DNA of 64,000 nucleotides from Mytilus edulis (taxonomy: Eukaryota), in assembly GCF_963676685.1 (NCBI RefSeq), contig NC_092357.1, forward strand, positions 35,526,001-35,590,000, read 5' to 3'. The translations under genes and the position numbers were made by a program. Shown here piece by piece: positions 1,971-58,540 of this stretch (within the stretch, counting starts at the first letter, position 1; each line of letters starts with the position of its first letter). The notes below the pieces were generated by a model. That model saw only the letters and a list, made by a program, of their open reading frames with translations. It ran no database searches and was not told where the DNA came from.

Positions 1971-3853
1971 TGTTTATTAAATCTTATATTTACCACATAC
2001 AATGTTTAAATAGGAAGAAATGCTTAAAAGCTGTTTTTTCGCAGATGGCGGTATTTTGGGCAACTGTATGAGTTGTTATGATTTGCTGTTTGATTAGAAG
2101 TAAGCATAATTTTAGGATATTTTATGATGTCATAAACTTCTTTGATAGTCATTACAGGGTTTTACTCAGTTTTAATTGATAAGCATTTGCACCAGAACAT
2201 GCAGAAAGAAAAATTTGGGTTTTCACACATTTTGTTAACTTTTACTCGAATTTCAGGAAACATGTGCTCTCTGTCAAAAACATGCTTTAAATATTAAAAA
2301 ATGTATTTTAATAATGACTGTTAATCTATCTGCTAAACGTTTAAATTGTTTGCATGTGTGAATTTAGCATATAAAAGTCATATGTAATCAGGCTGAAATC
2401 TTAGAAAATATGCACTTATTCGTCCTTGGTCTTTGATCTTGATTTGACGGAAATTGCACCGTACGATTTTTTTACGACCGGGCAAAACAGATAGTACAGA
2501 TGTGTAGCTTTCAAATGATATATAATTTAGCCGTGTGTTAGGTAGGTGCATTAAACATTTAATTTTATGGTTAAAGTCACTCGCCTAAGAAGTCCTATTG
2601 ACATTTACTAGTTGGCAAGACAACAAAAGTAGCCTAAACGTCTTTACATGGCAATTAAAGGAAATGTACAGGTGATCAGGGATGCTTTACAAAAATAATT
2701 ATTAAGCATGATAGTACAATAAGTACAGTATAGTTTATTTATTTAAAAACGAAATAAGGGAGTGCGTATTTTTGACAAACTCGAAGGAATTTTTCGTTTT
2801 TTTCTGGCAGTTTATTTAATCCTTTGTATAGAGATGTTTCACAACGGTAACATTAACTCTCTGGAAACATTATTGGTTTCATTTTGCTGATGCATTTAAC
2901 AATTACAATACTGATGTTTATTAAACTTAGGATTATATGACGTCAACATTAACCACTATGAGTCTTTTTCTAAAGCATCCATGCTATTAGATCTATCTAT
3001 AAAGAACCTTACAGTGAAGATAAGGGACTATGTTTTTAAATATTGTTTTAACTTGGAAATACGCCGGTATTCACAAGAGTGTTGTTCATGTTGTTATATA
3101 GTAAATAGAAAAAAAAGGTATAATCTGAAATTCTCCCATCTCTTGCATCATTTTTTCTACTTGAGCGATTCGTATTGTCAATATCCAGATGAAAGATCAA
3201 GATATCAGCTTAGCATTATTGTTTGGGGGGTAATTTTTATTACTTTACGACTGGATAAATACGTTCGCAGGTAACACACAAAAAGTTTGACCATGAAAGA
3301 TTAATGTAAGGTTGAATCTGTTTCATGTCGGACTAGTTATTGCAGTATTATCGAGATTAAAACAAGGAATACAAGTGAAAAGGTTATATAAGTCTATTGT
3401 TTTATACTAAACCTGTATGTTCTATGAAATTTTGACATATCGTTTGGATAATTCAAAATCAGCGTCTTCTTTGTTTCGGAGCATTTGGCAAACCTAGTCC
3501 ACACTTGTGTACATTTGGTAATCAGACCTGAGAAAGAAGATAGAGTTTTTCAATTTTGTATCCAATTTCTAAAGAAACATAGAGTACAAAAAGGTAGATC
3601 TATGAATGGTAAGGATTTTTTGCGGTCCTTATCATCGTGGCAGTGTATGTTCAGTTGGTCAGAGAAATTATTTATGCATCAATAAATCATGCCTTCTTTT
3701 GTTGTTTTATTGTTTTGAAGATTTCTCCCTAAATGTATCACCAGCTCAGAAGTGAACACATCTGTGTTCACATAAATCTTTATTGATATAATATTTTAAA
3801 ATTACGTTAATAAATGACAACAAATTACCAATTTTAAGAACATGTTATAATAA

Positions 3854-4253
3854 TATATACTGCAGCTGTGCTATTTGAGCAGTCAAATTGCATTGAATGT
3901 ATATTCCTATGTGATATACTGTCACTGACCATATATCACCTTGTTTATGACGTTGACAGTGCGTTTCCATAGAGTTTTATTTATGACGTCCATAAAGCAT
4001 ACAGGTTTGCGGAAATTTAATGTTGTCCGCTCCAAATTAAAAAACAATGATTTTTACCCTAAATACTTCATTTAGAACAGTTATAAGAGCTGCAGTATAT
4101 AAAAAATAACCATACATTGTCTTGAAATATAAAAGTTATTTGTACTCGGCTCGAAACAGTTAGAAATGCTCGGCACAGCCTTGCTTTCTACCTGTTTCTA
4201 AGCCTTGTACAAATAACATTGATATTTCGAGACAATGTATGGTTGTTCTATAT
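3854..4253 (+). mobile_element. Short-IR plus terminal-hairpin element (Crypton-like, non-autonomous)
   Basis: 14-bp IR TATATACTGCAGCT (3854) / AGCTGCAGTATATA (4088), followed directly by a ~140-bp hairpin at 4108-4244. Confidence 0.55.
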
Positions 4254-5529
4254 TTGTCTGTTGTTTTCATGCCAGCAGTTATTTACTTGCTTGCTATTAT
4301 TACTTTACCATTTTGAAACAAATTTTCAATTATTTTAGGTTGAGAAGGCTGTTGAAGGAATTACAGAACTACAAAAACATATGTTAAGGTCTAAAAATCA
4401 AGAACTTGCCAGAACAGATATAGGTAAAGAAATGAATGTTAATGATGTCACCATTACTTGTGATTGGGCAATGAAGTTTTTGCCCAGGAGATATCGGGAG
4501 GGCCAAATGGATTGGTTCGCTAAAAGGGGAATAAACTTGCATGTGTCAGTATCATTGGTAAAACTGGAAACAAAGATGTGCAGCTTTTCTCATATTCACA
4601 TCTTTAACAATCAAACTTCACAGGATGCACCAACAACTACTGCAGTTATTTGTGATGTTGTGAAAGATTTACAGGCAGCTATTCCAATTTAAATGAACTA
4701 TCTATCTTCAGTGATAATGCTGGTTGTTACAAGAGCACTATGACATTATCAACTTTACCTCATGAAATATGAATTTTCAAGAATTTGCAAGTTTAAAAAA
4801 GCATGTTTTCCTGGAATTTATTACAAATGTATTATTATGTGGATCTGCAATACAGTTACCTTATGTGGATTCAATAATATTCATACATGAAATTTATGTT
4901 TTTTACACCCAATCTTTGAATCTTGATGGATAAAAGCACGTCTTGTTTTATATTGATCCTATCAGAATTCATTCAGTATCCAATCTTTTGTAGGCAATTG
5001 ATTATGTACCAAGGAAACCTGACAGGGTGAAGGTTGTGGACACAATCCATGATTTAGATGTCACCAAGAATAAAGATACTATCACCAATATTACAAGTTT
5101 TTACAACTTTAGATTTGAGAGCAGTCATTTGAGGATGACGCAGGCATACAATATTGGTGAAGGTATTACTTTTATATTCAATATAAAGAAAGAAAAAAAG
5201 ATTACAAATAACATATTGTTTTAAACATAACACAACCACTGAAAATAATATAGGGTCTGGCTTCTACATATTGTATCTTCCTCCTAAAACCTGGGTTAGT
5301 ATTTAAAAGAATATAAAGACACTTAAAAGCAATACCAATACTAACTATAATGCAACTATTTTGTATCAATGATTCTGATTCGATGACAGTTAGCGTAAAA
5401 TTCTCTATCTCCTTGTCTGTAACTAAGGAAGCTGACATTTGGAATTGCTGAATGTATTGACATGTAATTTCTACAATAATAAGCAAAAAAACTCACATGT
5501 TGCACCTAAAAATCTTCTTTTTATCAAAC

Positions 5530-5892
5530 TTTATTACATTCTGAAGCGGCACAGATTCCAGAAAATGCCCGGTGTTTATGTTTGACGCCGGAAGCATACC
5601 TATGACGTCACCTAGTGTAGGGACCAAAGAAGATAACATTTTTCGCGGAATTTTCTTTAATGAAGATTTTTACACTGAAATAATGATTGAATTTTAATTA
5701 TGAACTTGTTTTGCATTAGAACAGAGATAACTATTGTATTTGAAGCTTTTGCGGACTTCCATCGGTAGTTTTACTGTCGCAAATACCCATTTACCTGTCT
5801 CCACTCCGCGTCGCCAGGTAAACTAAATTTGCGACAATAAAACTACCGATGGACGTCCTTAAAGCTTCAAATACAATACAGTTATCTTTTAA
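5530..5892 (+). mobile_element. CATTAGAA plus hairpin element (Crypton-like)
   Basis: CATTAGAA (5714), then a ~165-bp hairpin 5725-5887 ending TTAA; related to 9352-9528 and 38012-38172. Left boundary approximate. Confidence 0.55.
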
Positions 5893-6004
5893 ATTTAATA
5901 AGCTCAGCACTTCAACTTAAAACATATAAAATTAAATCATCTTAATAAAAGGTTGCATACTTCATTTTGTACTTAGAATGCCCACCATTTAATGTCAGCC
6001 AGAT

Positions 6005-6454
6005 GGTCCGAGACCACAATTGTCGTCCCTTGATTTTCGTTGTTCACGAACATAGTCCCTAGTGTTGACAGTGGGTTACTTGCCATTAATTTTTATACCC
6101 CTTTCAAATTAATTTCTCCATGTTTAATGCCTCAAATTGCAAGTAGGGGGTGAAATTACACTGTAAAAAAAATTTTGGTCCAGAATTGTAAAGGAAAGTA
6201 GTGATTTGGTCAGGTGAAAAAGGTTGGAAATTAGTACTTCGGAAGCTGTCAAAAGATTTCAAGACGCCCTAAATATAAAATTGTGCATATTTTGAGTTAG
6301 AGCCGATGAGGTTTTCTATAATTTTGATATAATTTGTCCCAAAAGTAGTACAACACACTGTAAAAGTTTCTTTGAGAAAGCGCAGGTGGGATTTTTTTTA
6401 TTTTCATTTATGTTCTAAAAGAAATGCACTACGAAATAATTGTGGTCTCGGACC
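6005..6454. mobile_element. 450-bp MITE with 17-bp TIRs and a 4-bp TSD (AGAT)
   Basis: GGTCCGAGACCACAATT ... AATTGTGGTCTCGGACC, with AGAT on both flanks. Confidence 0.9.
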
Positions 6455-6471
6455 AGATAATAAATAGAGCC

Positions 6472-6743
6472 TTTTGATAAAAAAAAAAAAAAGGCCACAA
6501 ACTCCTAAACTAGAATGTATGCTATAAAACTGCAGGTAATTTTATATCATAGCATTGATAATCTTAAAGTCATAAGCTTTCCTGAAATGAAAATTGAAAT
6601 TAATTTTTATGACGCTATGATATAAAATTACCTGAAGTTTTATAGCATACATTCTAGTCTAGGAGTTTGTGGCCTTTTTTTTTTTTTTATCAAAAATTTC
6701 AATTTTCATTTCAGGAAAGCTTGTGACTTTAAAATTATCAATG
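6472..6743. repeat. Interleaved inverted repeats A-B-A'-B'
   Basis: A 6472-6553 pairs with A' 6614-6695; B 6553-6600 pairs with B' 6696-6743. Confidence 0.85.
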
Positions 6744-6849
6744 AATTCTTTGCAGTTAAAAGTACTTAATGACTGGACAGAGATGTCTTTAAACGGTCTC
6801 ATTACTGAAGGTAATTTTATAATTATTTCATTTACTAACTGTCACGTAC

Positions 6850-7172
6850 CAAAGAGGGATGAAAGATACCAAAAGGACAGTCAAACTCATAAATCGAAAA
6901 TAAACTGACAACGCCATGGCTAAAAATGAAAAAGACAAACAGACAAACAATAGTACACATGGCACAACATAAAAAACTAAAGAATAAACAACACGAACCC
7001 TATCCAAAAACCAGGGGTAATCTCAGGTGCTCCGGAAGGGTAAGCAGATCCTGCCCCACATATGGCACCCGTCGTGTTGCTTATGTGATCACAAATCCGG
7101 TAAATAGTCTAATTCGGTAGGTCACATTCATGAAAGGGAAGGGGACTGTAGTTAAGACGTAAAGAACATATC
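6850..7172 (-). repeat. Dispersed repeat derived from the 3' end of Penelope-like elements
   Basis: Core CTCAGGTGCTCCGGAAGGGTAAGCAGATCCTG, also seen near 16480, 19300, 27490, 47900 (opposite strand), 58960 and 63870; contiguous with RT coding sequence at 27330-28240. Confidence 0.7.
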
Positions 7173-9351
7173 CAAACTTAAGCACCCTTGAAAGACAATG
7201 ATCATTATTATAATTTGTCACAAAATGGAGGAAACCAACACAAATTTAAATAAACCTTGTTATCTACTTATGCATCATTTAAATTTCCTGTTTGTGGGTA
7301 ACAGGATTAGGGATGTAGACATAATCTTGTTATAGTTAATCAGACTGTCCAATGTTGAAAGAAATATTCATACAAGTAGTATTGTTGTCCTTTTTAGGTC
7401 CCTGGTCCACTTCTGGCATAAGCTTTTTCAAAAATCTTCTAATGAGGGCCAATTGGAACTGCGAATGGTTACATGTGGTTACATGTAGTAAATTAGAATT
7501 TTACTGTGGTTTTTTTTTTGGAAACATATTTATTTTATTTATCCTCTTTTTAGGAGCAGAACAGGCTTCAAAACAGCATATAGTTGTCCTATGGAGGGCT
7601 GCATTTGGGTGTTCAAGAACCAGATCAGTCTTGATCAGCACCTCCTTCAAGGCAACTGTGAATACAAGCTAGAGAAAGGCCCATTAAAAGATCAGCAAAA
7701 GTTCTGTATGCCCAAATGCTGTCCAATAATGTACAGCATTGTCCTGATATGCAAGCTGCCTTACTACAAAATGCATTTACTCCAGGCTTGAGTGTCAAAG
7801 AAATTGGATGGGCATTAAAAGTGAAAAAGAAAAAGATTTTCTTTAGTGTCAAACAGAAGGAATTTATGACAGATTTATTTAATCAAGGGGGAAAATCTGG
7901 CTCCAAAATAGACCCTTATACAGCTGCAGAACATATGAGATCAGGTGTATATACCTTTAGGAAAGACGAATTCTTAACTGCCCAGCAGATAATTGTTTTT
8001 TTTCTAGAATGGCACAACAACAGAGAAAAACAGATAAGCATGACTATAAATCAGCTAAGTCTGAAATTGTCAGATCACAACTGAAAACAGAGATTTTAGA
8101 GACAATTGAAGACTAAACAAGTGCTATTGACATTTTGTACTAAAATAAATTTAATTTTGCCATCACTTGATATCCATCAGCAGCAATTAAATTTTTTTCC
8201 AAAATTTACATCTGTCACGACAGAAAAGGTTTGAAACACATCATTTGTGACAAAAGTCTTCAGACACAATACAAGTCTGAGTGGGGATCATAAATTGCCG
8301 TTCAATGTAAGGGAAGAGACAAACACTTAAAAGACTTCAATACAAATTAGATAAAAAGAAGAGATAAATAAAAAGTACAGAGATATTTATATAAGTTATA
8401 GTACCTAGTTTTAAAATGCACTAAATTAAATAAGCTTACACTTCTGAAGTTCTGTTAGATTTAAGATTAAATTTGAACATAACGCTAAATTATAGGTGTT
8501 GCAATTTAAATTGAATTAATCACATTTTTTATCTGAAATCTCTAAACCAATTATCCTAACAGATTATGGCCATATAATCATGATATATCTGACTTTTCAA
8601 ACCTAATGATACAAATTTTTATGACATTTGTGAAATGTAATGATGCTGATGTTTATTTTGATATTTTATTAGTACACATTTGAATGTATTAACTATTCAT
8701 TTGAATACTGGTACATCTTTTTGTCAATATGTTCAAACTTGATTAGGTGATATATCTGTAACCATAGCAGTTTGAACTTACTTATGAGAATTGCTTGAAA
8801 GTTTTGTAATACCTGTACAATGTCATTGATATACATATATAGACATGTTGGCACTGTTAGCAGATAAGCTTTAAGTGAACTGAATTAGCATTTTTAACAT
8901 GCTGTGTATGTTTGTGAGTATTTGCCTACTTTTTCTATTGATATTTCTTGGAAAAAGGACTATTCTAAAGCAATTTGTTTGTATCATTGAATTTCTATTT
9001 GCTACCACTCAGCGTAAATTCAAAAATCTACCTTCCATAACTAAGGTTCTTCTTGAACAGATACAAGAAGCAGCCATATTGGATTGAACATGATATTTTC
9101 CGAATAAACAAGCAAATTTCAAAAATGTCTACCAAAACTACTTTTTATCAGTTTATATCCAAATTTAACGAGTTAACAAAGCTGTTAAACATACAATGTT
9201 AATGTTTTACACTGGAAGTATTCATATGATGTCATAATGTTGCTATGAAGGTTAGGTGCCAAAGAAGTCATCAATGTATTGTGGAATATTTGATTTAAGC
9301 AACTTTATGTCCAAATAAAAAAACCAGAAACAACATTTTTATTGACTATTG

Positions 9352-9528
9352 CATTAGAAAGGACATAACTGTATTGTATTTTAAGTTTCGTGGACTTAAA
9401 TCTAGATTTTACTGTTGCAAATATCAGATTACCTAGCTTTGCCATATGTGCCTAGGTAAACTCAATTTGCAACAGTAATATCTATTTTATGTAGAAAAAC
9501 GTTCAAATACAATACAGTTATCTTCTAA
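9352..9528 (+). mobile_element. CATTAGAA plus hairpin element end (Crypton-like), older copy
   Basis: ATAACTGTATTGTATTT ... AAATACAATACAGTTAT arms, homologous to 5725-5887. Confidence 0.5.
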
Positions 9529-20635: not shown

Positions 20636-22822
20636 CAAATATAATTAAACATTGTAAAACAAACCACATAAAATGAAGATAATTTAAACGAGACTGAAAG
20701 AAAGTGACAGAAAAGACTTTAAATTTTGATAATTATTGAGCACTGGAACATCATCTGTGTCATTAAGATAGTCAGGATATTTCAGATTACTTAGCAGCCA
20801 CATGATACAATCTTGATATATATTTATAAGTCGATGGAAAATACACAGATTGGACTGTTAAAACAAAATGTAACATGGTAAAAGTAGTTTGTTTGAAAAA
20901 GGTTATTTTCACGAATTGTTCACCTAATCTATGCAAGTACTTTCACCTTTAAGGGTTTACTTTTACAAAGTATGACTTGGATGGAGAGTTGTCTCATTCG
21001 CACTCAAACCACATCTTCTTATGTTTATTAACTGTATGTTGAAAATTTTAACTATATGCAGTACACATTGTGTTACCTACATGTAGCGCAACTTTACTAT
21101 TGAAATCCTAAAGTCATCCATGCCGCAACTTTACATGATTAGAAAATTTAAATATTAAAAATTAACACCTACAAAAAACTGGATTTGTTGGCGTTACTTA
21201 ATGAAAGAGCAAAAGATTTTTTGCTTTTTGATTATCACCTCCAAGAAATTTTCACCAGATGTTTAGCTTCCTGTTTAACTCCTTCTTTAATAGTGTATTT
21301 GTTGACGTGATTTGAACCTAAATAAAAAAAAAGTAGATCGGAGCCTTCTTCGATACAAACTGGAATGGTAAACACTTTGTTCAAACAAATATAAATGTAC
21401 AAGTAAAATATTATGTCAAAATATTAAAAGAAAAGACACATTATATTATTACAATCAAAAACTTGACACACTCAATGACCATGATCAAATATAATTAAAC
21501 ATTGTAAAACGAACCACATAAAATTAAGATAATTTAAACGAGACTGAAAGAAAGTGACAGAAAAGACTTTAAATTTTGATAATTATTGAGCACCGGAACA
21601 TCATCTGTGTCATTAAGATAGTCAGGATATTTCAGATTACTTAGCAGCCACATGATATAATCTTGAGATATATTCATAAGTCGATGGAAAATACACAGAT
21701 TGGACTGTTAACACAAAATGTAACATGGTAAAAGTAGTTTTTTTGAAAAAGGTTATTTTCACGAATTGTTCACCTAATCTATGCAAGTACTTTCACCTTT
21801 AAGGGTTTACTTTTACAAAGTATGACTTGGATGGAGAGTTGTCTCATTAGCACTCAAACCACATCTTCTTATGTTTATTAACTGTATGTTGAAAATTTTA
21901 ACTATATGCAGTACACATTGTGTTACCTACAAATGTACATGTAGCGCAACTTTACTATTGAAATCCTAAAGTCATCCATGCCGCAACTTTACATGATTAG
22001 AAAATTAAAATATTAACAATTAACACCTACAAAAAACTGGATTTGTTGGCGTTACTTAATGAAAGAGCAAAAGATTTTTTGCTTTTTGAATATCACCTCC
22101 AAGAAATTGTCAGCAGATGTTTAGCTTCCTGTTTAACTCCTTCTTTAATAGTGTATTTGTTGACGTGACTTGAATCTCAATTAAAAATAAGTAGATCGGA
22201 GCCTTCTTCGATACAAACTGGAATGGTAAACACTTTGTTCAAACAAATATAAATGTACAAGTAAAATATTATGTCAAAATATTAAAAGAAAAGACACATT
22301 ATATTATTACAATCAAAAACTTGACACACTCAATGACCATAATCAAATATAATTAAACATTGTAAAACTAACCACATAAAATTAAGATAATTTAAACAGA
22401 ACTGAAAGAAAGTGACAGAAAAGACTTTAAATTTTGATAATTATTGAGCACTGGAACATCATCTGTGTTATTAAGATAGTCAGGATATTTTAGATAACTT
22501 AGCAGCCACATGAAACAAGCTTGAGACATATTCATAAGTCGATGGAAATTACACTGATTGGACTGTTAACATGGTAAAAGTAGTTTGTTTGAAAAAGGTT
22601 ATTTTCACGAATTGTTCACCAAATCTATGCAAGTACTTTCACCTTTAAGGGTTTATTTTTACAAAGTATGACTCGGATGGAGAGTTGTCTCATTGGCACT
22701 CAAACCACATCTTCTTATGTCTATTAACTGTATGTTGAAAGTTTAAACTATATGCAGTACACATTGTGTTACCTACATGTAGCGCAACTTTACTGTTGAA
22801 ATCCTAAAGTCATCTATGCCGC
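20636..22822. repeat. Tandem array, ~850-858-bp unit, about 2.6 copies
   Basis: Unit start CAAATATAATTAAACATTGTAAAAC at 20636, 21486 and 22344; high identity; non-coding. Confidence 0.95.
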
Positions 22823-37849: not shown

Positions 37850-38172
37850 TTAATTCTAATGCAACAACGTTTGTAACGTTCATTCTGATTGGATAACGTC
37901 ACTTTCTTACATGGCAACAATTGACAATTGATGCTATGGGACGTACGCGCAAGCGCAGACGGCATATGACAGATTTTAAATACATGTTTTAACGTTGTTT
38001 TCTGTCAGTTTCATTAGAATGGAGATAACAATATTGTATTTTAAGCTCCGACGGCATCAATTTGGGATTTGATGGTCGCAAATACCCGCGTCGCCAGTAA
38101 ACTTAATTTGCGACCATCAAATCCCCAATTGATGCCATCGGTGCTTAAAAGTACAATACAGTTATCTCCTAA
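37850..38172 (+). mobile_element. Complete short-IR plus hairpin element (Crypton-like)
   Basis: TTAA-TTCTAATG ... TTCTGATTGG ... CATTAGAA-T-GGAGATAAC [150-bp hairpin] GTTATCTCC-TAA. Confidence 0.65.
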
Positions 38173-38955: not shown

Positions 38956-40618
38956 GTATTTAAGAAATTGTATATTTATTTACAAAACCACTATTCTTTA
39001 ATACAATATCCATATTATGCTAGTTTAAACTCAGTCAAATGCTGTGTCCACGCTATCCAAACAACGAAGCTGCGCGTACTAGACGCAGAACATTTATTTC
39101 AGTTAGTTTGATTTAAACTGGAGAGAATTTTGGCAAACAGTTTATGCTTTCATTACCTTTATACATTAAAGCTGCAAGTTAACCTTAATCATATTTTTTA
39201 GATCCGACTAATTAAACTATAGAGATCAACCCGTACAATGTAATTGTTTAATTTTTTTTTTCTTGTTATCCAAAACCCAATAAAGTTATGTTATATACTA
39301 TTTATCCTTACTCTCTCGATTTCTTGAATGAATTCGAATTTGTTTATACCTCAATGTTGTATTTGTCCAACAATTGTTAATCCTGCTTCAATAAAGATGC
39401 AAACAGGATAATGCTCGTTTCAAAGAACATGTAAATTATCCAGTCGTTCACTCAACCAGTCTAAAAGGAAAGATTGGTTAGTAGATAGCTCCATTGTATT
39501 TGAGTTCCTCTTTCTTAACCCTTTCCAATCGATGACGATGACTTTCTCTATTTCTAACTGGTAGATGACGACTTTGGCATTCGCCAAAACCGCTTGAAGC
39601 CATACTCCGGTCGTCTCCTGACAAAATATGAAATAATTGTATCATACAAGATCTCTGGTGCCAGTTTGCACAATATTTTTATGCTAAAAAATTGAAGACA
39701 TATTTTTTTTCATTTTGTCCGAATCACCAGAAAAAAATACTGAACCAAATTCTTCACAAACCACTCTCTTTTTGTCTTTGGGTGGATCAATTTTTTTGGC
39801 AGATATAGGATATTCATTGTACAGTCTTATAACTCCGAAGCATTAAACAACGAGTATTTGCAGAGTCTCCTTCTTTTGCAACTGAGTAATGATAGTTGCT
39901 CTTACACAGAGTAGGTAACCGGCCAAACATGATACATACTTTAGGTATTTTACCTCATTTCATGGGAAAGTTATCAAAGTTAAGCAGAAGGTCAAATTCA
40001 TTTGTTGTAAACATTTGGAAGATCAACATATCTGTTTTGTTGATTTCACATGAACTTGATTTAATTTTTATGGTTTATTGGTCATTTTAATTTTTTTGGT
40101 TATCCTTTTGCAAACATGTTCTCTTTGCCTGTCTTTGTATTAATGTTTAAGATTTCAATGAGCACAATCTATGTATATTAACTGATAGATTATAAAGCCG
40201 GGGATTTTCAACTCATAAATTACTAATACATGTAGTTCTTAATTTATTCTTTCAAAGATACAAACATTTGTTTTGAAGTTTGCTTTACCTGAAGAATTCT
40301 TATAAAAAGCAAGTTATAACCGTTCTTATTTTACTCAATAGACTAAACAAGCATTTTAAAAACAACGTTTTTCTCCATATTTTACTGATAAATGAATCTC
40401 TTTTTGCAGTTAACATTTAGTTAGAGCTGGTCAATCATTATTTCATTTCTATTATTTAGACAACATCTTACTATTTCACATTACTCTGAAAACCTGCCAG
40501 TTTTTCTCTTGTTAGTGCATGTGTATTGTACATTTCCACTTTAATACTAAATGCATTTTTCAATAGCTACAGAAATTTGTATTTTTTGCTTTTTTTCAGG
40601 TCCTCAAATCACTGGAAC

Positions 40619-40697
40619 ATGTTTTTTCTCTCAGTCTTTCGTGCTTTGTTATTTACGATATTGTACCAGCAATTTCCTGTAGTTGTATACTCTCAAA
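40619..40697 (+). CDS. Ig-Ig-CTLD lectin (CREP/VIgL-like), coding exon 1: signal peptide MFFLSVFRALLFTILYQQFPVVVYSQ
   Basis: Acceptor at 40599, ATG at 40619, hydrophobic N-terminus ending VYS-Q, perfect phase-1 donor AAA|GTAAGT. Confidence 0.85.
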
Positions 40698-41442
40698 GTA
40701 AGTTTCGAACATAAAAAATGATATAATTAATATGTATAGTTAATTTCCATTGCTCCTTTTTCTTCTTTTGTCAAATGAGGAATGACCATGATATTACTTG
40801 TCCTGGCGAAAAAACCATCAGTCCAAATTGCTCAAGTTATTTCTGTACTTTATGAACAAAGATAATTTTTATTATGTTAAGTTTTGCATTTCCACGATGT
40901 AATACCCAAAAGGTTCCCAAATGTAAGCAAAATTGCCCATATTAATTCTTGGAGCGATAGTATTCTTTTTGAAATCATTGTTTGCGTATGAATACAGAAT
41001 TTGGTTATTTTTTTACCAACAAAACTTTCTCTCAAATGTATAAGTGGCTAAACACAATAAAAACTAGCTAAATATTGTCTTGCTTTTCTTGCTTTTCTTA
41101 TTTGTTTGAGATTTAAAAATCAATGATATCTAAGATGTATCGTCGTGTGTTGTCTTCAGACGTTGTTGGCTGTCGTTGTCGATGTCTTCTTTGCACAAAT
41201 CGACGGAACCTATTAGGCAAATTGGAACATCGTCATTGTAGTACATTTCATCTTGTTTAACAAACTTGTCAGATTATCCCATCTACCAACCAACAGTGAC
41301 TACACAAACAACGATAGACGAGAAGATTAATAAATAAGTCAGCTCTGCTATATTTAATCGTTGATTCCTCAAAGGAGTTTAGAACTTAAATGATGTTTAA
41401 GAGATTTCCCTTTTAAAAAAATGTTTCCATTTGTTATTTCAG

Positions 41443-41757
41443 CTTTAACACTGACTGTTGAAACTTCTCCATTTAAATACGGAAATGAGGTGACATTAAA
41501 ATGTTTATACTCTGGACCAATAACATGTTGTTCATCCTCTTCAAGGGTTTGGAGACGTGATGGAACATACATTATGAGTGATGGTGTTCAAGTTGATAAT
41601 ACAAAAAAATACGAAGAGAGAGTTAATACCGCAGGCCATTATTTTGAATTGAAAATATTCAACCTTGAGGAGTCAGATTTCGGTAAAGTATTTCAGTGTC
41701 AGTATGGTTTCTCAACCAGCAATTCCGTTACTTTAACAAAGGATTTTACTCATGAAC
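41443..41757 (+). CDS. Ig-Ig-CTLD lectin, Ig domain exon copy 1
   Basis: 315-nt phase 1-1 exon (tttcag|...GAAC|GTAAGT). Ig hallmarks: VTLKC, RVW, FELKIFNL, SDFGKVFQC. Confidence 0.9.
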
Positions 41758-42407
41758 GTAAGTATTGATGTTATGTTAATCAAACAAGATTTTCAAGCTA
41801 CTTGTTTAAGGAATCATTGATGTTTAGAACTCAAATTTAAATTTTAGGTTGGATTTTTGTTAGGAAAGTTGTATAATCCTCGATAGCTGGGAAAACAGTT
41901 ATATAACTTTAATCTGTACTCGGAATTCAAACATGACAAAATATGTGCTCCATATAATGAATTAAGTGTTTTGATCGTTTGAAATCTGAGTTTTAGTACG
42001 ATCGGAATGTTTATGATCGCAAGGCCTTATCATGACCCCATTTTTATTGATACATGCTTTTCTTATTTGTTTGAAATTTAAAAATCAATGATATCTAAGA
42101 TGTTTCGTCGTGTGTTGTCTTCAGACGTTGTTGGCTGTCGTTGTCGAAGTCTTCTTAACCCATCTCTACGGAACCTAATAGGCAAATTGGAACATCGTCA
42201 TTGTAGTACATTTCATCTTGTTTAACAAACTTGTCAGATTATCCCATCTACCAACCAACAGTGACTACACAAACAACGATAGACGAGAAGATTAATAAAT
42301 AAGTCAGCTCTACTATATTTAATCGTTGATTCCTCAAAGGAGTTTAGAACTTAAATGATGTTTAAGAGATTTCCCTTTTAAAAAAATGTTTCCATTTGTT
42401 ATTTCAG

Positions 42408-42722
42408 CTTTAACACTGACTGTTGAAACTTCTCCATTTAAATACGGAAATGAGGTGACATTAAAATGTTTATACTCTGGACCAATAACATGTTGTTCAT
42501 CCTCTTCAAGGGTTTGGAGACGTGATGGAACATACATTATGAGTGATGGTGTTCAAGTTGATAATACAAAAAAATACGAAGAGACAGTTAATGCTGCAGG
42601 CCATTTTTTTGAATTGAAAATATTCAACCTTGGGGAGTCAGATTTCGGTAAAGTATTTCAGTGTCAGTATGGTTTCTCAACCAGCAATTCCGTTACTTTA
42701 ACAAAGGATTTTACTCATGGAC
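42408..42722 (+). CDS. Ig-Ig-CTLD lectin, Ig domain exon copy 2
   Basis: Near-identical 315-nt phase 1-1 exon with intact splice sites (GGAC|GTAAGT); 5 amino-acid differences from copy 1. Confidence 0.85.
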
Positions 42723-43631
42723 GTAAGTATTGATGTTATGTTAACCAAACAAGATTTTCAAGCTACTTGTTAAAGGACATCATTGATGTTTAGAACTAAA
42801 ATTTAAATTTTAGGTTGGATTTTTGTTAGGAAAGTTGTATAATCCTCGATAGCTGAGAAAACAGTTATATAACTTTAATCTGTACTCGGAATTCAAACAT
42901 GACAAAATGTGTGCTCCATATAATGAATTAGGTGTTTTGATCGGTTGATCTGAGTTTTAGTACGATCGGAATGTTTATGATCGCAAGGTCTTATCATGAC
43001 CCCATTTTTATTGATACATGTATGGAGTTTTGAACAAAAGTTAAAGGGTTATTCTATTTTTGTGGTATGGTAAGATAAGAGAAAATTATAAAAAGCAAAT
43101 TTGACTATCTATAAAACGGCAACATTTGTCGTCAACTCCTTATATGGCCATTTGTTTGCATCTTTGATAAAAAGTATAGTAGATTAAATTTTAATCAAAC
43201 AATGATGATATTCACTGACCGTTACAGAGTACTGACTTCTACTTTGAGCTGGTGATAACCTTCGGAACAAACAGTCTACAAGCAGATAAATCGACCATGT
43301 GGTAGTAATAGCATTACTGCTACATACTTACTGCACAAGTTGTGTAATTCACCATGTCTCTTTATTGGTGTTCGCACCAAAACATAAAAAAGAAAACACC
43401 AAACCTGAAGAGCCGATCAAACCAAAAAAAGTGATCTCAAGTAGAACAAAATCAGGATAATTAATCATATTTTAAATAATCACATTCCTTGATTTAAGAT
43501 GATTTTCAAAGTTTCTTAAAAATCAACCAGTACCTATCTTTTTGGCAACACCATCACCATGCATAAAGATAACCTGTAAACAGAAATAACGATATGTAGA
43601 CTGATATTCAGATGTGATTTCATATTTTCAG

Positions 43632-43732
43632 ATAGCCTGTATGACTTGTGTCCATCGAACTGGACCAGGTTTGCTGATTCTTGTTACTATCCCAGCACTC
43701 ATGGGCAAGTTCATAACTTCCACACTGCAGCG
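43632..43732 (+). CDS. Ig-Ig-CTLD lectin, CTLD exon a (SLYDLCPSNWTRFADSCYYPSTHGQVHNFHTAA)
   Basis: ttttcag| acceptor, phase 1-0, long-form CTLD start CPxxWxxFxxSCY, donor GCG|GTAAAT. Confidence 0.9.
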
Positions 43733-44453: not shown

Positions 44454-44538
44454 ACATTTTGTAATGGACATAATTCGCACTTGGTGGAATTAGATTCCCC
44501 AGAGGAACAAGTATTTATGGAGAAGTTGATCAACAAAA
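44454..44538 (+). CDS. Ig-Ig-CTLD lectin, CTLD exon b (TFCNGHNSHLVELDSPEEQVFMEKLINK)
   Basis: ttttacag| acceptor, phase 0-1, typical C...HLVxxxSxEExxF motif, donor AAA|GTAAGA. Confidence 0.9.
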
Positions 44539-44632: not shown

Positions 44633-44995
44633 AGTATTGTTTCCATGTTCAGTAGACCGTGAAATTGGGGTCAAACTTTAATTTGGCATTCAAATTAGAA
44701 ATATAATAGCATAAGGAACATGAGTACTAAGTTTCAAGTTGATTAAACTACAACTTCATCAATAACTACCTTGACCAAAAACTTTAACTAAAAACTGTAA
44801 TCTGAACTATGCACTATCATTTTCCATGTTCAGTGGACCATGACATTGAGGTCAAACTTTAATATGGCATTGAAAATATAACGATCATATCATGGGGAAC
44901 ATATGTACTAAGTTTCAAGTTGATTGGACTTCAAATTCATCAAAAACTACCTTGTCCAAAAACTTTAACCTGAAGCCGGACAAACGGACGCACGT
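44633..44995. repeat. Two units of a ~180-bp satellite followed by GACA/GACG repeats (Helentron-associated, resembles the main Mytilus satellite)
   Basis: TTCCATGTTCAGT.GACC.TGA.ATTG.GGTCAAAC...GTACTAAGTTTCAAGTTGATT at 44641 and 44822. Family identity is from recognition only. Confidence 0.7.
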
Positions 44996-45875: not shown

Positions 45876-46754
45876 ACTACACATAGTATTAATAAATATG
45901 ACTTTAAGGAAGTGTTATCTTTATAGTAGATAACATCGTCTTTCCTGTTGTAAATTCTCCTCCTTTGTGGTGATATTATGTGGTAAAATTAAGCATTCCT
46001 TAGCAAACAGCCTTAATAATTTTTGACAAAAGTGAGATCCCTAGAGTAAAAAAAATCCCTAAGAACTCGAAAAACGAAATCCTGTCTTACAACACCAAAT
46101 CCAACAACAACATGTATATTGGTTAAATTCTAAATTTAGAGTACAGTAATCGTGCTACAGATTTTTATGACTGCAAGACTGAAGTTTAAGATTTGAGAGT
46201 TGTGGATGAATGCTACTCCAATCGAAACAAATCTGGTCAGAAAAAATATACATCTATATATAGGAGCATGAAAAACCAACAACAGTACCACATGTGAGGC
46301 AAAATCTACTATTATTCGACAGCACCTGAGCTCACCCCCAGTTTTTGGTTGGGTTTATCTTGATCAGTCTGTATTTTATGTTTTGTTTTTTGTACTGTTT
46401 TTGTTCCGTTTGTAAGCCATGGCGTTGTCAGTATAGTTTTGACTAATTAGTTTAAATAAAATTGAGAACGGAAATGGGGAATGTGTCAAAGAGACAACAA
46501 CCCAACCATAGAAAAGACAACAGCAGAAGGCCACCAATAGGTCTTCAATGCAACGAGAAATTCCCGGACCCGGAGGCGTCCTTCAGCTGACCCCTAAACA
46601 AATATATATACTTGTTCAGTGTTTACAATGTGCAAAACCAAAATTGTATATTAGGCATAAAACAACAAATCAAAGTACACGTACGTCACATTCGGTTTCA
46701 AATGTTCGTTTAGTATCCTCGGCTTATTTGTTATTATTCTGATATAATTTTTAG

Positions 46755-46885
46755 CTAATTCATTACATGATTTTTGGATTGGTGCTAACGACATTGATCA
46801 CGAGGGTATTTGGAAGTGGAATGGTTCTAACACTGTATTGAATTACAGCCACTGGTGTACTGGAGAACCGAACAATGCATTACAG
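46755..46885 (+). CDS. Ig-Ig-CTLD lectin, CTLD exon c (NSLHDFWIGANDIDHEGIWKWNGSNTVLNYSHWCTGEPNNALQ)
   Basis: tttttag| acceptor, phase 1-0, WIG, EGxWxW and EPN motifs, donor CAG|GTATGC. Confidence 0.93.
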
Positions 46886-47312: not shown

Positions 47313-47416
47313 GGTGAAGATTGTGCAGCTCTAAATGTCAACAATATTCCAGGCAAAAATTTCTGCTGGAATGATTACAGTTGCAAAAGTTATCATAACT
47401 TTGTATGTGAGAAAAG
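47313..47416 (+). CDS. Ig-Ig-CTLD lectin, CTLD exon d (GEDCAALNVNNIPGKNFCWNDYSCKSYHNFVCEK)
   Basis: Polypyrimidine acceptor, phase 0, EDC, WND and VCEK motifs. Ends at AG|GTAAAA (phase 2), or reads through to TAA at 47418-47420. Confidence 0.93.
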
Positions 47417-48520
47417 GTAAAATTCAAATAAAGATAGGTATAGATTATCAGGTTGATCAGTAGATCAAAAAGCCTTCATTTTGTGTCGAGCAGCTGATAT
47501 TTTACAATATCAATATGCAGATAAAATGTTTACAATGTGCAAATTCAGTATTTTATATTAGGCATAAAACCAACAAATCAAAGTACACGTACGTCACATT
47601 CGGTTTCAAACGGAAAGGGATCGAAAAATATTCCTTTAATTTTTACATTAGTATAAAGTAATTTCATTGCAAAACAAAATTCCTAAGCTTAAACATATAT
47701 CTTAATGGTTAAAAAAGACTAATCTTATTCCAATTGGAGTTTCAATATTATATTTTGTAAATTTAAGATTACATGGTTACTGAAACAGTGCAGAGGATAA
47801 ATTTGATGACAATTCGATTGGTTAACACCCAAAGATAGTTTCAGTTAGAATCCAGTGATGGTTATTGTTGACGGGTGCCACATGTGGAGCAGGATCTGCT
47901 TACCCTTCCGGAGCACCTGAGATCACCCCCAGTTTTTATTGGGGTTCGTATTGCTTAGTCTTTAGTGTTCTCTGTTTGTCTCTATTTATATTCTAGCCAT
48001 GGCGATGTCAATTTATTTTCAATCTATGGGTTTGACTGTCCCTGAGGTATCTTTCGCCCCTCTTTTCTTATCGTATATGCAATGAAATGGTGTATGATAT
48101 TTTAATTGTAAAATACTGGATACAATTTAACTCGTGTCAAGTGTTTCTTGGTTTAAAACAACGAGACATTCTGCACATTTTATTGAAAAGTGCAAATTAA
48201 ACAAATACTAACGGAGAAAACAGTATCATGCATGTAGACGGCTTTAAAACGACCGATTAAACGATAAACATCACTTCATTTGGTACAAAATTCTAACCTC
48301 ATTCAATATAAAAATATTTGACAAAAGCTTTTTTGAAACATTATAAACAAATTCCAACATTTGTATGATATTTATTACATGGAAACCTGACTAAACCAAA
48401 TATTGTGTAAACAAAACATCTGTCTAAACCTTACAGCAGGTTAAATCCCGAAGAGATTTGGTGTAGACAGGTTTTACTGTAATAAGGTCGCATAATAATA
48501 CAGATTATTTTTTATTTCAG

Positions 48521-48602
48521 TATTTCGGCAGTAAGTACAACAACCAATACGTATACTCTCCCAACAGGAACACTGGAATGGAGAACAGTAGCAAGAAAAT
48601 GA
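48521..48602 (+). CDS. Ig-Ig-CTLD lectin, terminal exon (ISAVSTTTNTYTLPTGTLEWRTVARK*)
   Basis: Strong acceptor tttttatttcag|, phase 2 matching the upstream donor, TGA stop, AATAAA at 48743-48748. Confidence 0.6.
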
Positions 48603-52010: not shown

Positions 52011-52247
52011 GGGGGTGATTACGAACGCACCTTTGAACAGGATGTAGTCATTGCGAGGTCTCGATGAAAATTAGTCTTTGGTGAGTTCAGAGTTAATATC
52101 AAGCATGTGATCTAAATCCATAACCTTTATAGCGTTTATTGAATATTATAATAGACAAAAAAGACTGTTTTATCGACAGAATAACCCCTTATTCCTTTTT
52201 TCAGTTTGCAGGATAAGGGGGATTGTGCGGTGCGCCTGACTTTTTAA

Positions 52248-54985
52248 GGAAGTACACCACTAATTAATGGCCCCATTGCTTTCTATGTTAAATTCCTCAA
52301 TTTCGAGTGGTCACAGCTCTTTTATCTGAAGTTCAAATAAAGTGACAATCATTGCATGTCAAAGCAACACCTTCTTGTGTCCTGTACTGAAAAAATCAAC
52401 ATACCTTACATTGCATATAAGAAAGAACTGGTTCCCGGAACTTCGGATGTACCAAAACAGGTACTTCCGATCTGACAAAAAGGCAAAATGTACCCTCCTT
52501 TTTAAATTTCATGCCATTTTTTTATTATTCAAATTTATCAGTCTAAAATTGTTCTACAATGATCACCAGTCATGCAGCTTTCATTTGATACCATAATTAA
52601 TAAAATACTCTAAATATTTTGAAAGTTATGACCATGCGTAGGAACTATTTTGTGTAAAATATGTACTACTTTCTGGTATGTGCTTTCTGGCCGGGCGCGA
52701 ATTAGTGGTGTTACACCTATAACAGAACCAAACTTGTTATATTGACTTGAGCATTACTTTATTTCATACTATGATCTATTCCAAGCAATAAAAAACATAT
52801 AAAGCTTTAGTCCAAATAATATTTTACTAATTTTAAGCTCAAATTGGACTGGTAGTAATATATTGGTTATTCAAAGAAAACTGCATATGGATATTGTATA
52901 TTGGCCAAAATCCTTTTTAATCTCAATATTATTGTTTTATTTATTAATTTCTATTAGAAAAGCTCTGTGCTAACCAATAGTCATATTTTTATCAGAGGTT
53001 CTTCATTAAATAAAAATTTATTAGTCCAAACTTAAGACACAATTGAGAATATTGTCCCCCCTTTTTTCTTCAAATAAAAAAAAATGGCCTTTTTTTTGTT
53101 TAAACCTTACTTCTGTGGTAAAACATAGATTATTAAGAGCAATTCTAATATGACGTGCTTCTTTCGCTTTGTAAACAACACCGTGATAAAATTCTCGATA
53201 TATCTATACTTAGCGCAGACTCCCAAGATGTACACAAATGGATGTTTAAATATGCCTCCCACGTAAATCCACATGTATCGTAACTTATGTGTAAACGGTT
53301 ACAATTGAATAAAACCCTACAGAACATTTATTCTGATTCTGATGCATAACAAAAAAAATTTACACATTAGAGAACGGAAAAATGGACAAAAGCAAAACAA
53401 ATTAAAATTCGGCGAAATTCCAGTTATGATTTTTGCGCATTAACGTCGTTTCAAAACATGACGTCATACGAATGAAAACGTCAAAGCCGAAGGTTTTTCA
53501 ATTGCGTTTACATTTGTACCTTCTAAACTCGGATACAATTGCATTAAAATAAAGTATTGAGGTGGGTGTTGCTTGTTTTCTGTTCTATTGCAATATTCGC
53601 ACATTTACTGATTTCAGCAAGTCAACATGGCGGCTCCTTGGTTACAACATGTCAACAGTGAATTTGACGGTAGCTTACGATAAAAAATGCAAATCTAAAA
53701 TTGCAAATGTTGGGTTTACAGAGAAGTAAAAAAAAGTAATCACATTTTTTTCTAGCGGTTAGTTAAGAAATCATTCATGCAGGTTTATTAGATTTGTTTT
53801 ACATTTACCGAACAGTGGGTAAAATAGAACAGCCACACACACGGTATACCCATCATCGCTTCAGTTTTTTAATGATCGTATTTGTCCTATTAGAATCGAA
53901 ATAATTCATGGAAGCCATAGATTTGTTGTTAATTTACACATGTCCTGGGCCGTGATATTCGTTAATTTTATCTCTCGCTAACGCTCAGGATAAAATTAGA
54001 ATATCACGGCCCAGGCCATGTGTAAATTTCCAACAAATCTATGGCTTCCATGAATTTTTTCTTAATTTATATTTACCAAAGCTAGATAACTTGCTAAACT
54101 GGTTCAAAATTACATGTACAGTGAGATTTTGGAATTCTTATATGAGTATATACCATTTGCCTAGACTGAAAAGGCTACCATAAGAAACACAATAAAACTT
54201 GAAAAATCATAGGATTATTTTGACCAAGAGCTATGTTGTACCATATGCAAGTCTAAAAATACATGTTTTATTGATTTCAATCATAAAAAATGCAAAAATA
54301 AGAACTTGGAGTCAAGTCTTAACTGCATGCATGTTGTATGACCATAAAAGGCTAAAATACTTGAGTATGCCAATTTAAGAGCTTACATTTTCTATAAACA
54401 GGATGGTTCACCAAAAAAAGATGATGAAACATGATTACTAGCATCAAATTTGACTTATTTTCATTGGAATAGATACAACTTCTAAAACTTGAATTTCTGA
54501 TGATTCTCTGTAATAGGAAGTACACCACTAATTAATGGCCCCATTGATTTCTATGTTGAATTCCTCAATTTCGAGTGGTCACAGCTCTTTTATCTTAAGT
54601 TCAAATAAAGTGACAATCATTGCATGTCAAAGCAACACCTTCTGGTGTCCTGTACTGAAAAAATCAACATACCTTACATTGCATATAAGAAAGAACTGGT
54701 TCCCGGAACTTCGGATGTACAAAAACAGGTACTTCCGATCTGACAAAAAGGCAAAATGTACCCTCCTTTTTAAATTTCATGCCATTTTTTTACTATTCAA
54801 ATTTATCAGTCAAAAATTGTTCTACAATGATCACCAGTCATGCAGCTTTCATTTGATACCAAAATTAATAAAATACTCTAAATATTTTGAAAGTTATGTC
54901 CATGCGTAGGAACTATTTTGTGTTAAATATGTACTACATTCTGGTATGTGCTTTCTGGCCGGGCCCGAATTAGTGGTGTTACACC
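52248..54985. mobile_element. Non-autonomous KolobokP-type transposon with 470-bp long terminal direct repeats
   Basis: LTDRs at 52248-52717 and 54516-54985 (about 12 differences), each bounded by inverted ends GGAAGTACACCACTAATT / AATTAGTGGTGTTACACC; TTAA only at the two outer ends. Confidence 0.85.
53141..54065 (+). mobile_element. Short-IR plus hairpin element nested in the KolobokP-type element
   Basis: AATTCTAATA ... TATTAGAAT (53888), then a ~160-bp hairpin 53898-54061 ending TTAA. Confidence 0.6.
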
Positions 54986-55039
54986 TTAATACGGGTTTAT
55001 CCTACAACCGAAATTTTAACCGGTGCATTCGGATAAACA

Positions 55040-56772
55040 ATGCAAAGTGCCGGTGAATTGTCAGATAGCCAAAATCGGAATTCAAATAATGGAATAAGAA
55101 GAAATATAAGTTAAAAAGGGAACCAAGCATATGTCACTGGAAAGAAACAATATTTTAAAGATTGTACTGTTCGAATTGAAGGTATACAAACTCAGAATGT
55201 TAAAAATATTACTGTTATTGAATCAGTTGAAGAAGTCACAGGTCTGAATACTGTTTTGGCAGTTGTTCAAAATGATGCATTGTCCTATGATGTTACTCTT
55301 GATTCGAAGGAGGATGCCGTGAAAATATTAAATGGAATAGAGATCAATAGATGTGACTACAACTGTAGTCTTATCTTTTCTGATACAACCGTTGTTTCAT
55401 TCATGAAATTACCTTTGTTTATTTAAGATGATGAAATTAGAGACAAATTACGTCAAAAGGGAATACTCATTAAATCTCCCATCTATCGCCGTGCTATACC
55501 GGGAACGCAAGTAGCAGATAGAACAAGGTTTGTTAAGTGTAAAATCCCACCAGGATTTGTTGCCTTACCATGGACAATGGGATTCGAGATTGGTACAACA
55601 ATGAAATACTACCGTTTTGTTCATAATAATCAGACTAAAGTCTGTTCACTTTGCCTATCGCCTGATCATATTCAACGTGACTGTCCGCATTATGTCTGCG
55701 ATGGTTGTGGTAATCATGGACACTCAGTTCGGAAATGTAGAGCTGCAAAAATCTGCCTTTAAAGTGTGTATGTGAAGCAGTTGAAGTAAATGGTAATTAT
55801 GATGGTGGAAATAAGGATGAGGTACATGTAGGAGCTAAGGATTTCTTTGACAAAGATGATAGACAAGGTTTTGGGAGACCCCAAAAAATCCAAGATACAA
55901 ATAATCAAGGTCATGAGAATGATTGTCCATACTGTGGGCATTTGGTATGTATTTGTGAGTGCATCAGCTGTGGTAATGCTGAATGCACTTGCCCTTGTGG
56001 AAAATGTGAAAAATTTCCCTGTCAATGTAGTATTGTTTGTTATCATTGTAATAATGATCCATGTGTATGTCCATGTCCAGATTGTAAACATGCTCCTTGT
56101 GAGTGTGTATGTGAAAAGTTTTAACAAACTGTTTGTAACTGTATAGACTCTGATGAAAACGAAAACACAGAAGTAGCATTTAAAAAAGATGAAACTGTTA
56201 AAAATATATATGAACCTATGAATGAACAAAATGATTATGAAAAAATGATGTATCTTTGAATGTTGTTATTGAAAATCATCACACTGAAAATGTAGACAGT
56301 AGAAAAAGGAAAATTGTAATTTCTGATGAAAATTGTAATGATGATAATGTTGAGGCTGTTTGTCAGACTGAGATGAATGATGTCATCTCTTTGTGTGAAG
56401 TAAATGACATAGGGAGAGATGAGCATATAGATAATAAAAATGTGAGAAGAGAAGCCTCTCCTTCTGGTGAAAAAATGGATACAGGAGGGGAGGACAGGGA
56501 CACTTGTGGTGATTATACCTCGGGTTGTGATGAGGTCACAGCCGGGGTAGATAATGTAGACTCCTCTGTCTGTGATGAGAGATGAAAGCTGGGACGGAGG
56601 AGGTTTTGTTAAGAATAATCTGATAGAGGTAGTTTCAAAAAACACAAATGCATTAACTGCCAAGCAATTACGAAGAGTTCGAAAAAAACAAGCAAGAAGG
56701 AATGAAAGGGTAAAGTCAAAATTAGATGGGAAACAAAATGCTGGTAAAAAAAACCTCAGATACTTAAAATGA
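55040..56772 (+). pseudogene. L1/Tx1 ORF1 remnant (RRM-like region, two CCHC knuckles, Cys-rich repeat, acidic tail)
   Basis: From ATG 55040, with in-frame stops: VLAVV..YDVTL, VVSFMKLPLFI, PGTQVADRTRFV, CSLCLSPDHIQRDC, CDGCGNHGHSVRKC. Confidence 0.8.
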
Positions 56773-56821
56773 TGGCAATGTTTAAATTTATCATGTTTAT
56801 ATTACTTATCTTACTTTTGAA

Positions 56822-58540
56822 AATGGTATTAATATGTACACATAGCACATAATTGTAATGGTCTGAAAAATGTAAATAATTTTCAAAATTATATATCTGT
56901 ATTATACGATAGGCATATTAGTTTTTCCCTGTTACAGGAAACATTTTGGGATGATGACTATGTCAATGGAATTAGACATATGTATGAAGGTGTAATATAT
57001 GAAAGTAATGGTAAAAATTGTCGACAAGGTGTAGCTATTATGATAAGTAATAACTATAAAGAAAGTTCTAAGTTAGTTTTTAAAGATGACAATGGTTTTA
57101 TACATGTTACATATGATTATCTAGGAAAAGTGTATAATTTAGTTTCTTTATATGCTCCAAATAATTATTCAGAAAGAAAATAATTTTTTATGTTTGTTAG
57201 AGAATATATATCAAGTTTAGAAAACCTCATTGTTGGAGGTGATTTTAATACCACTTTAAGTAGTTTAGATAGAGGTGGTTTATCAAAACATATTTGTGAT
57301 GAAGCTTATAAAGAGTTATTTGATATAATTCATTCATGTAATGTATATGATGTATGGAGAAGTAGAAATGAAAATAAAAAGATATTTTCTTGGAAAAGAA
57401 TTACAAATGGTATGTTACAACAAAGTCATATTGACTATTTTCTTATTAGTCGAATGTTGTCATCAAATGTACAAAATGTGTCTTATAACGAAACTAGTTT
57501 TAGTGACCATACGTATATTATAATGAATTTCAATTTTTGTACTGTTGAAAAGGGTTTTAAATAACACCTTATTACATAATGATGAATATGTTCAAACAGT
57601 AAGGAATATAATATAATTAATGAAGCTGTTCAAAGTTCATTGTATACTGTTGAACCTCTTGTATGGTGGGATAATCTTAAGTTAAGAATCAAAAGTTCTC
57701 ACAAGTTTTTTCAGTTAATTTGGCAAAAGAAAAAAAGAAAGATTTTTTTAACTTGCAAAATAAAATCCAAAGGATATGTGCCATGCAAGCAGACGGTATT
57801 GCTATAGATGTTACGAAATTAGAAAACTTAAAGCTTGAGTTAAATAATTATGAGTTAGAAAAATGCAAAGGAGCAGTTCTATGATCCAAAGCAATATGGG
57901 CTTCTGAAAGTGATAAGAATACTATTTTTTTTTTTAATTTAGAAAAATACAAGCAAGAAAATAATGCTGTAAAAGAGCTTATGAATGACAAAGGTGATGT
58001 CATTAGTGATACTGATGGTATACTAGATATTGAATATTCTTTTTATAAAAATTTATATTCTTGTGTTAAAGTAGATAATGTGAACATGGAAGAATTCATT
58101 AGTTCTATTGATGTAAAAGTAAATCACAATGATAAAGACATGTGTGATGCAGAAATATTATATGATGAAATTACTGAAGCTTTGATGGCTATGTCAAAAA
58201 ACAAAAGTCCTGGTACAGATGAGCTTACAACAGAGTTTTACTGTAAATTTTTTGATTGTTTAAGAAATATATTATGTCATGTTTATAATAGTATTTATGA
58301 TGAAAATATTATGTCAAGGTCTATGAGAGAAGGTGTTTTAAGCTTAATTTATAAGAAAAAAGGTGATAGAAGAATTTTGAAAAATTATAGACACCCTATT
58401 TTTGTGTCGATAATGGGATAAGACGAGGATGTCCAATAAGTGCCCTTCTCTTTATTTTAGCAGCTGAAACTTTACAATGTAATATTAGAAAAAATGTGAA
58501 TATATCTGGTATTAAAATTCCAAATACCACTGATAAAAAA
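56822..58540 (+). pseudogene. L1/Tx1 ORF2 remnant (APE endonuclease plus partial RT)
   Basis: NCNGL, LQET, GVAIMI, YAPN, GGDFN, IDYFL, SDH; KSPGTDELTTEFY, NYR; then jumps to GIRRGCPISALLFILAAE and stops before the YADD motif. Confidence 0.9.

Follow-up and report, generated by a model that had tools for sequence, protein, structure and literature searches.

We found a head-to-tail duplication of an Ig exon in a gene predicted to encode a secreted Ig-plus-C-type-lectin protein. The reading that we favor, with a slightly better than even chance, is recurrent Ig-exon turnover in this gene, giving a two-Ig CREP-like lectin. The window, as used below, is the whole 64,000-nt stretch of DNA that was analyzed. 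The duplication is present in the sequence and is probably real. The features are as follows.

20636-22822: tandem array with about 2.6 copies of an 850-nt unit that are 2.4-4.4% diverged, with no clear ORF and no Rfam match; served as background control
40600..40697 (+): signal-peptide exon (by hydropathy), not part of the duplicated unit; its ATG at 40619 opens 26 codons plus 1 nt, and its donor is phase-1
41090..42054 (+): copy 1 of the duplicated unit, in which the Ig exon is preceded by 353 nt and followed by 297 nt of intron
41183..41213 (+): intronic 31-nt patch with 8 of the 21 flank differences (copy alignment)
41348..41619 (+): 272-nt run identical in both copies, the end of the intron plus the first 177 exon nt (copy alignment)
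41443..41757 (+): first of the two A-type Ig exons (Ig exon 1), with a V-type Ig fold, 315 nt, phase 1-1; derived A62T, G75E and G104E
42055..42056 (+): head-to-tail junction without a gap, 2-nt TG microhomology
42055..43020 (+): duplicated unit, copy 2 (self-comparison and alignment)
42408..42722 (+): second A-type Ig exon (Ig exon 2), 315 nt, phase 1-1; derived R59T and Y66F
43632..43732 (+): C-type lectin exon 1, phase 1-0 (tblastn with P0001, 34/35 identical)
44454..44538 (+): C-type lectin exon 2, phase 0-1 (gene model, P0001 match)
46755..46885 (+): C-type lectin exon 3, phase 1-0, carries the WIG and EPN motifs (Pfam Lectin_C E=8e-05, P0001 match)
47313..47416 (+): C-type lectin exon 4, WND motif, phase 0-2 (gene model, P0001 match)
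48521..48602 (+): final coding exon, with the stop after a Ser/Thr-rich tail (gene model, P0001 match)

The plus-strand gene model is complete and reads signal peptide, V-type Ig, V-type Ig, EPN/WND C-type lectin. Every intron is of the GT-AG type, and an AATAAA is found at 48743, after the last coding exon. Each lectin exon is backed by P0001 in tblastn. The Ig exon splices directly to the lectin with no interceding region. The signal peptide was called by hydropathy; the N-terminus is hydrophobic (KD19 1.44) and similar leaders (MYF...(V)SQ/YSK) are found in the relatives P0009, P0015 and P0010. No transmembrane segment was detected after the leader (the highest KD19 beyond residue 30 is 0.41) and the product is predicted to be secreted. 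As modeled, the gene shows CREP architecture. The EPN motif predicts mannose/glucose preference, and the lectin probably binds sugars of this type. EPN and WND are named, in the passages available of PMC5877582, as motifs that set binding in C-type lectins. The predicted protein is 403, 298, 298 or 193 aa long depending on the Ig combination, and all four forms are in frame. A candidate non-coding first exon lies at about 39820-39914 (+), and its GTAAC donor at about 39915 might be spliced to the acceptor at 40600. The lectin introns carry an 84-nt duplication on either side of lectin exons 3-4 (46620-46702 and 47527-47610, 6% diverged) and a 181-nt tandem (44640-44969, 15% diverged).

Self-comparison of the window aligned 41090-42056 with 42055-43020 (97.1% over 968 columns), a head-to-tail tandem unit of about 965 nt with no gap. 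Global alignment of the unit copies gave 938 matches, 25 substitutions and 2 indel events. The sequence-only reading had placed a recent in-frame Ig-exon duplication at 41090..43020, and the unit with its two intact exons is indeed there. In the same reading the flanking introns appeared more diverged than the exons, which did not hold up: the flanks differ by 21 events in 652 nt and the exons by 6 in 315 (P=0.30), and the excess hangs on the one 31-nt patch. Without this patch the flank count falls to 13 in 621 nt (P=1.0 against the exon), and the idea that the exon is more conserved than the introns was rejected as not significant. The 8 events in 31 intronic nt are clustered more strongly (P=1e-4) than the exon changes. 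In copy 1 the patch sits in a short quasi-palindrome (GTCGA...TCGAC, TTTG..CAAA), and this location suggests one template-switch event, not eight separate substitutions. The 272-nt identical run has P=0.003 under uniform placement and P=0.034 once clustered events are collapsed; it is possibly a conversion tract. The patchiness across the unit would fit conversion or multi-base events better than exon-specific selection. A 2-nt microhomology such as that at the junction is expected often by chance in DNA of 32% GC, the GC content of the window and also that given for the M. galloprovincialis genome in the available part of PMC7653742. Together with the match to P0001, this GC content makes a Mytilus mussel the very likely source of the window.

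Both Ig exons kept their splice sites, with identical acceptors (TTTCAG), GTAAGT donors and phase 1-1, and the four isoforms stay in frame, as had been read from the sequence. The two encoded Igs are 95% identical. The exons differ at 6 nt in 5 codons (R59T, T62A, Y66F, E75G and E104G in Ig numbering), as first counted; the claim that every change replaces a residue needs correction, as one of the six nt is silent (41630/42595, third position of codon 62). The identical start, put earlier at about 175 nt, runs to 177 nt, and the first difference is at exon nt 178. The Pfam Ig_2 match of the exons is below cut-off (E=0.018 and 0.044). An alignment-based AlphaFold (AF2) model of the Ig has pLDDT 85.4 and is structurally closest to antibody/TCR V domains, with Z 12.7 and an rmsd of 2.2 over 96 residues; Foldseek on a single-sequence model gave the same outcome. 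C20, W36, D78 and C85 are conserved. On the AF2 model, with strand letters assigned by Ig convention, the changes map to strand D and the start of strand E, to the D-E turn and the E-F loop, and to the C-terminal linker. No change was found on strand F or in the CDR-equivalent loops (B-C, C'-C'', F-G) of this model. Four of the five residue changes do fall within 17 residues (P=0.047, post hoc), and their location around the D-E-F strands stands for D, the D-E turn and the start of E, not for F. A Cys-Cys pair is present in the B-C loop at Ig residues 28-29 (41526-41531 and 42491-42496) and is kept in about 26-27 of 38 family domains. In several relatives an additional Cys lies close to the end of the domain; both window exons lack it, and for this reason the Cys-Cys pair may form a vicinal or inter-chain disulfide.

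P0001 (M. edulis A0A8S3PVS3) was the only longer homolog found (1 of 38 candidates). It is auto-labeled COLEC12, a label that was rejected as a misfit: Lectin_C alone is reported (E=7.7e-21) and there is no collagen domain. Its lectin and tail match those of the window gene at 162 of 166 residues (4 differ). The Ig part of P0001 starts with the C-terminal half of an A-like Ig, 39/50 identical to either window copy. A Pro follows, which is the residue made by the phase-1 Ig1-Ig2 splice in the window model, and then the N-terminal half of a second Ig, 27/46 identical to Ig1. P0003 is an intact B-type exon ORF (63/102 identical to Ig1, 28/43 to the second-Ig half of P0001), and P0002 is a single-exon ORF that was used as a third haplotype. 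Three identity classes of Ig exon are thus distinguished (95%, 78% and 62%). The M. edulis model P0001 appears to have an older A+B pair where the window haplotype has A+A'. P0001 is one automatic model, in which the first 15 residues are in another frame of the A exon (13/20 identical) and the B exon is cut halfway; its Ig exons may be decayed, mis-assembled or paralogous. The Ig part differs from P0001 at 11 of 50 residues and the lectin plus tail at 4 of 166 (P=2.6e-5, about ninefold), from which we infer that the Ig part is the faster-changing module of the gene; the 22% divergence of the A-like Ig may reflect paralogy, not fast evolution.

The sequence-only reading had seen in the two exons the possible start of an Ig cassette array. 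This is probably wrong, since P0001 already joins two divergent Ig exons and the window has only two. The window duplication is at least the second round, because in P0001 an Ig exon is joined to another that is far more diverged. Multiplication of Ig exons is, as judged from these comparisons, a real feature of this gene. No further or degenerate Ig exon and no B-type remnant was found in the 64-kb window (family HMM in six frames, tblastn with P0001); other HMM hits had iE 0.25 or worse. Further homolog searches gave 2 of 98 candidates (P0001 again, plus a weak lectin) and 2 of 461 (P0002 and P0003). The leads from the ESM Atlas with P0001 pointed to mollusc lectin clusters and were all below 0.9. 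A phmmer search with the Ig found 68 relatives among 1.84 billion proteins. A lectin domain is found in only one of them, P0001 (Pfam scans covered 52 of the 68), and a hydrophobic segment after residue 60 is found in 29 of the 40 hits of at least 200 aa. Two such Igs in tandem are present in P0004, P0005 and P0010. Because the other Ig relatives are mostly membrane proteins and the lectin domain occurs only in P0001, the data suggest exon shuffling, independent of the snail CREPs, in which a lectin gained a symmetric Ig exon that came from a membrane-protein family.

Comparison of the two exons gave 5 non-synonymous and 1 synonymous change on 240.6 and 71.4 sites. The resulting pN/pS of 1.48 comes from 6 changes only and has no power (neutrality P=0.58). 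The 5N/1S count rejects omega 0.1 (P=0.005) and omega 0.2 (P=0.04), not neutrality, and positive selection, tried as a reading of the clustered changes, was rejected as unshown. The five sites are variable in the family, with a mean entropy of 3.06 compared to 2.32 for random non-synonymous sites (P=0.013, 37 related Ig domains). This test took in 36 of the 68 phmmer hits, those with E no higher than 7.3e-6 and without the repeat artefact P0007, and 37 domains were left once P0001 and P0002 were removed. The avoidance of conserved columns by all five changes has P=0.006-0.013. The fold was protected while the changes accumulated, because they sit in family-variable columns. At the five sites P0002 has R, A, Y, G, G and the A-like exon of P0001 has R, D, Y, G, G. 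Polarized with these two, three derived states are in copy 1 and two in copy 2, and decay of one copy with conservation of the other was rejected on this split. The 3:2 split together with the sparing of the fold fits two used paralogous exons and two alleles equally well. We regard the five residue changes as tolerated surface variation of allelic size and not as shown selection.

Such allelic size raises the question of an assembly artefact, in which two alleles of a locus with a single Ig exon were written in tandem (a false exon gain); we consider this unlikely. The copies differ by 2.6% overall and 1.9% in the exon portion, close to the 1.73% mean heterozygosity of M. galloprovincialis (available part of PMC7653742), and false exon gain is a documented error tied to high heterozygosity (PMC9516828, same limit). 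Ig1, Ig2 and P0002 are about equidistant (5, 5 and 4 aa), as three alleles would be, and the shunning of conserved columns is as expected under purifying selection. The junction, however, is seamless, with no assembly gap between the copies and 0 N in 64000 nt; in false duplications a gap most often separates the copies, according to the available passages of PMC9516828. The 850-nt array about 20 kb away is of the same size and divergence class and shows that short tandem duplications occur here; it cannot be just two alleles because it has 2.6 copies. Near-identical segments of at least 470 nt make up 7.9% of the window. The two Ig exons that P0001 carries in this gene are 59-62% alike, which is beyond the allelic range. 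If the duplication is real, one copy might be mostly skipped, or the Ig module might be decaying under relaxed constraint in a gene that is chiefly a lectin. This is rather improbable. The rejection of strong purifying selection points that way, as do the broken look of both P0001 Ig exons beside an intact lectin and the in-frame Ig-less isoform (193 aa). Both window exons, on the other hand, are intact with consensus splice sites, their five changes avoid conserved columns, unlike random decay, and the changes are split between the copies.

The spacer intron between the Ig exons is 650 nt. With this spacer and with double inclusion in frame, there is no steric or frame-based exclusion. Pairing between introns did not exceed chance: the best 40-nt duplexes in three intron comparisons were equaled by 6, 15 and 19 of 40 shuffles. 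Of 136 inverted pairs, the 25 inspected are AT-rich throughout, and docking/selector RNA pairing was rejected on both counts. Constitutive inclusion of both exons is the default expectation from the splice sites (identical acceptors, near-identical strong donors), and skipping of an Ig exon is possible. The cassette or mutually exclusive use raised earlier thus found no support, although weak or protein-based exclusion is possible. Alternatively used Ig cassettes of the Dscam type, skipped or mutually exclusive and diversifying under positive selection, are in our judgment quite unlikely, below the two explanations just weighed. The symmetric phase permits all four isoforms, pN is nominally above pS, four of the five changes cluster, Ig exons of three age classes exist, and a duplicated exon is alternatively spliced in an oyster (available part of PMC5589949). 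These points are countered by the fit to neutrality, the unchanged B-C, C'-C'' and F-G loops, the spacer and phase, the duplexes no better than shuffles and the presence of just two exons with no remnants in the window.

In the favored reading, recurrent Ig-exon turnover, a 965-nt stretch with a phase 1-1 Ig exon would have been copied head to tail; microhomology-mediated repair or template switching is the probable route. Both Ig exons would be spliced in by default, because their splice sites are equally strong and 650 nt apart, and the predicted product is a 403-aa protein with signal peptide, Ig, Ig and a Ca-dependent EPN/WND lectin. The event would be a single step in a process by which this gene repeatedly gains and loses Ig exons, because M. 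edulis P0001 appears to have an A+B pair and the window haplotype has A+A'. A bolder version was also considered, namely germ-line birth and death of Ig exons in which haplotypes differ in exon number or type (A, A+A', A+B), with alternative splicing and balancing or diversifying selection, on a VIgL-type receptor built independently in mussels when a V-type Ig exon of a membrane-protein family was joined to a conserved mannose-type lectin. It is improbable to about the same degree as a skipped or decaying Ig; if true, it would mean a population-level repertoire of Ig cassettes on a fixed lectin. If the difference between A+A' and A+B holds, one orthologous locus shows one- and two-Ig lectin receptors arising and turning over: the Ig exon is duplicated and exchanged next to a lectin that remains about 98% conserved. 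The gene would then offer a model, open to testing, of how VIgL receptors evolve in animals other than snails, and its genus has been deeply resequenced. Taken alone, the duplication is nothing unusual in this genome, and the striking claims (selection, cassette splicing) are unsupported.

Ig-lectins in molluscs are reportedly treated by Dheilly 2015, Gerdol 2017 and Gorbushin 2019. The window gene resembles the gastropod CREPs (VIgL; Biomphalaria, Aplysia) in being secreted by hydropathy and in having two Ig N-terminal to a C-type lectin. This likeness is one of architecture. The window gene differs in its bivalve host, in having 95% identical Igs where CREPs have distinct IgSF1 and IgSF2, in lacking the interceding region, and in an Ig family composed mostly of membrane proteins. 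A0A8S3PVS3 shares the lectin exons and tail and two phase-1 Ig exons before the lectin; its pair is A-like plus B-type, both partial in the model, whereas both A copies in the window are intact and a B remnant is absent. Among bivalve CTL-domain proteins, Ig is listed as a CTL partner domain in unique bivalve architectures (Saco et al. 2023, PMC10140915, in part). The passages of that paper, its section 2.4 and a supplement text without Ig terms mention neither Ig-exon duplication nor this gene. Like arthropod Dscam-hv, the window gene is of immune type and has tandem copies of an Ig-coding exon that preserve the frame. The alternatives in Dscam number 12, 48 and 33, of which one is used at a time (PMC12074976, passages), compared to 2 whole-domain exons here, and no Dscam-type exclusion device (docking/selector, too-short intron, frame incompatibility) was found in the window gene. 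The gene and its Ig-exon turnover are undescribed in the accessible part of the gastropod-CREP and bivalve-lectin literature (PMC10140915, PMC9334734), mostly outside subscription journals and bioRxiv supplements, and we make no priority claim. The available parts of PMC5549309 and PMC7588048 contain nothing on bivalve Ig-lectins.

Rfam gave 0 matches on the window. A 472-nt copy pair (97.5%; 52247-52718 and 54515-54986) is bounded by inverted repeats at its termini (TACACCACTAATT ... AATTAGTGGTGT) and resembles a MITE. A broken LINE-type retrotransposon is found at 55115-58418 (+), with a zf-CCHC ORF1 (E=0.0017), an Exo_endo_phos_2 endonuclease (E=2.8e-06) and a stop-interrupted RT-like stretch. 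Stop-interrupted ORF fragments in 3452-8113 (+), at 4339-4689 and 7492-8081, read like a decayed gene or transposon protein. Imperfect palindromes of 150-220 nt, some of them interrelated, are located at 5711-5893, 6472-6695, 9365-9521, 38021-38169 and 53898-54061 and are probably MITE families.
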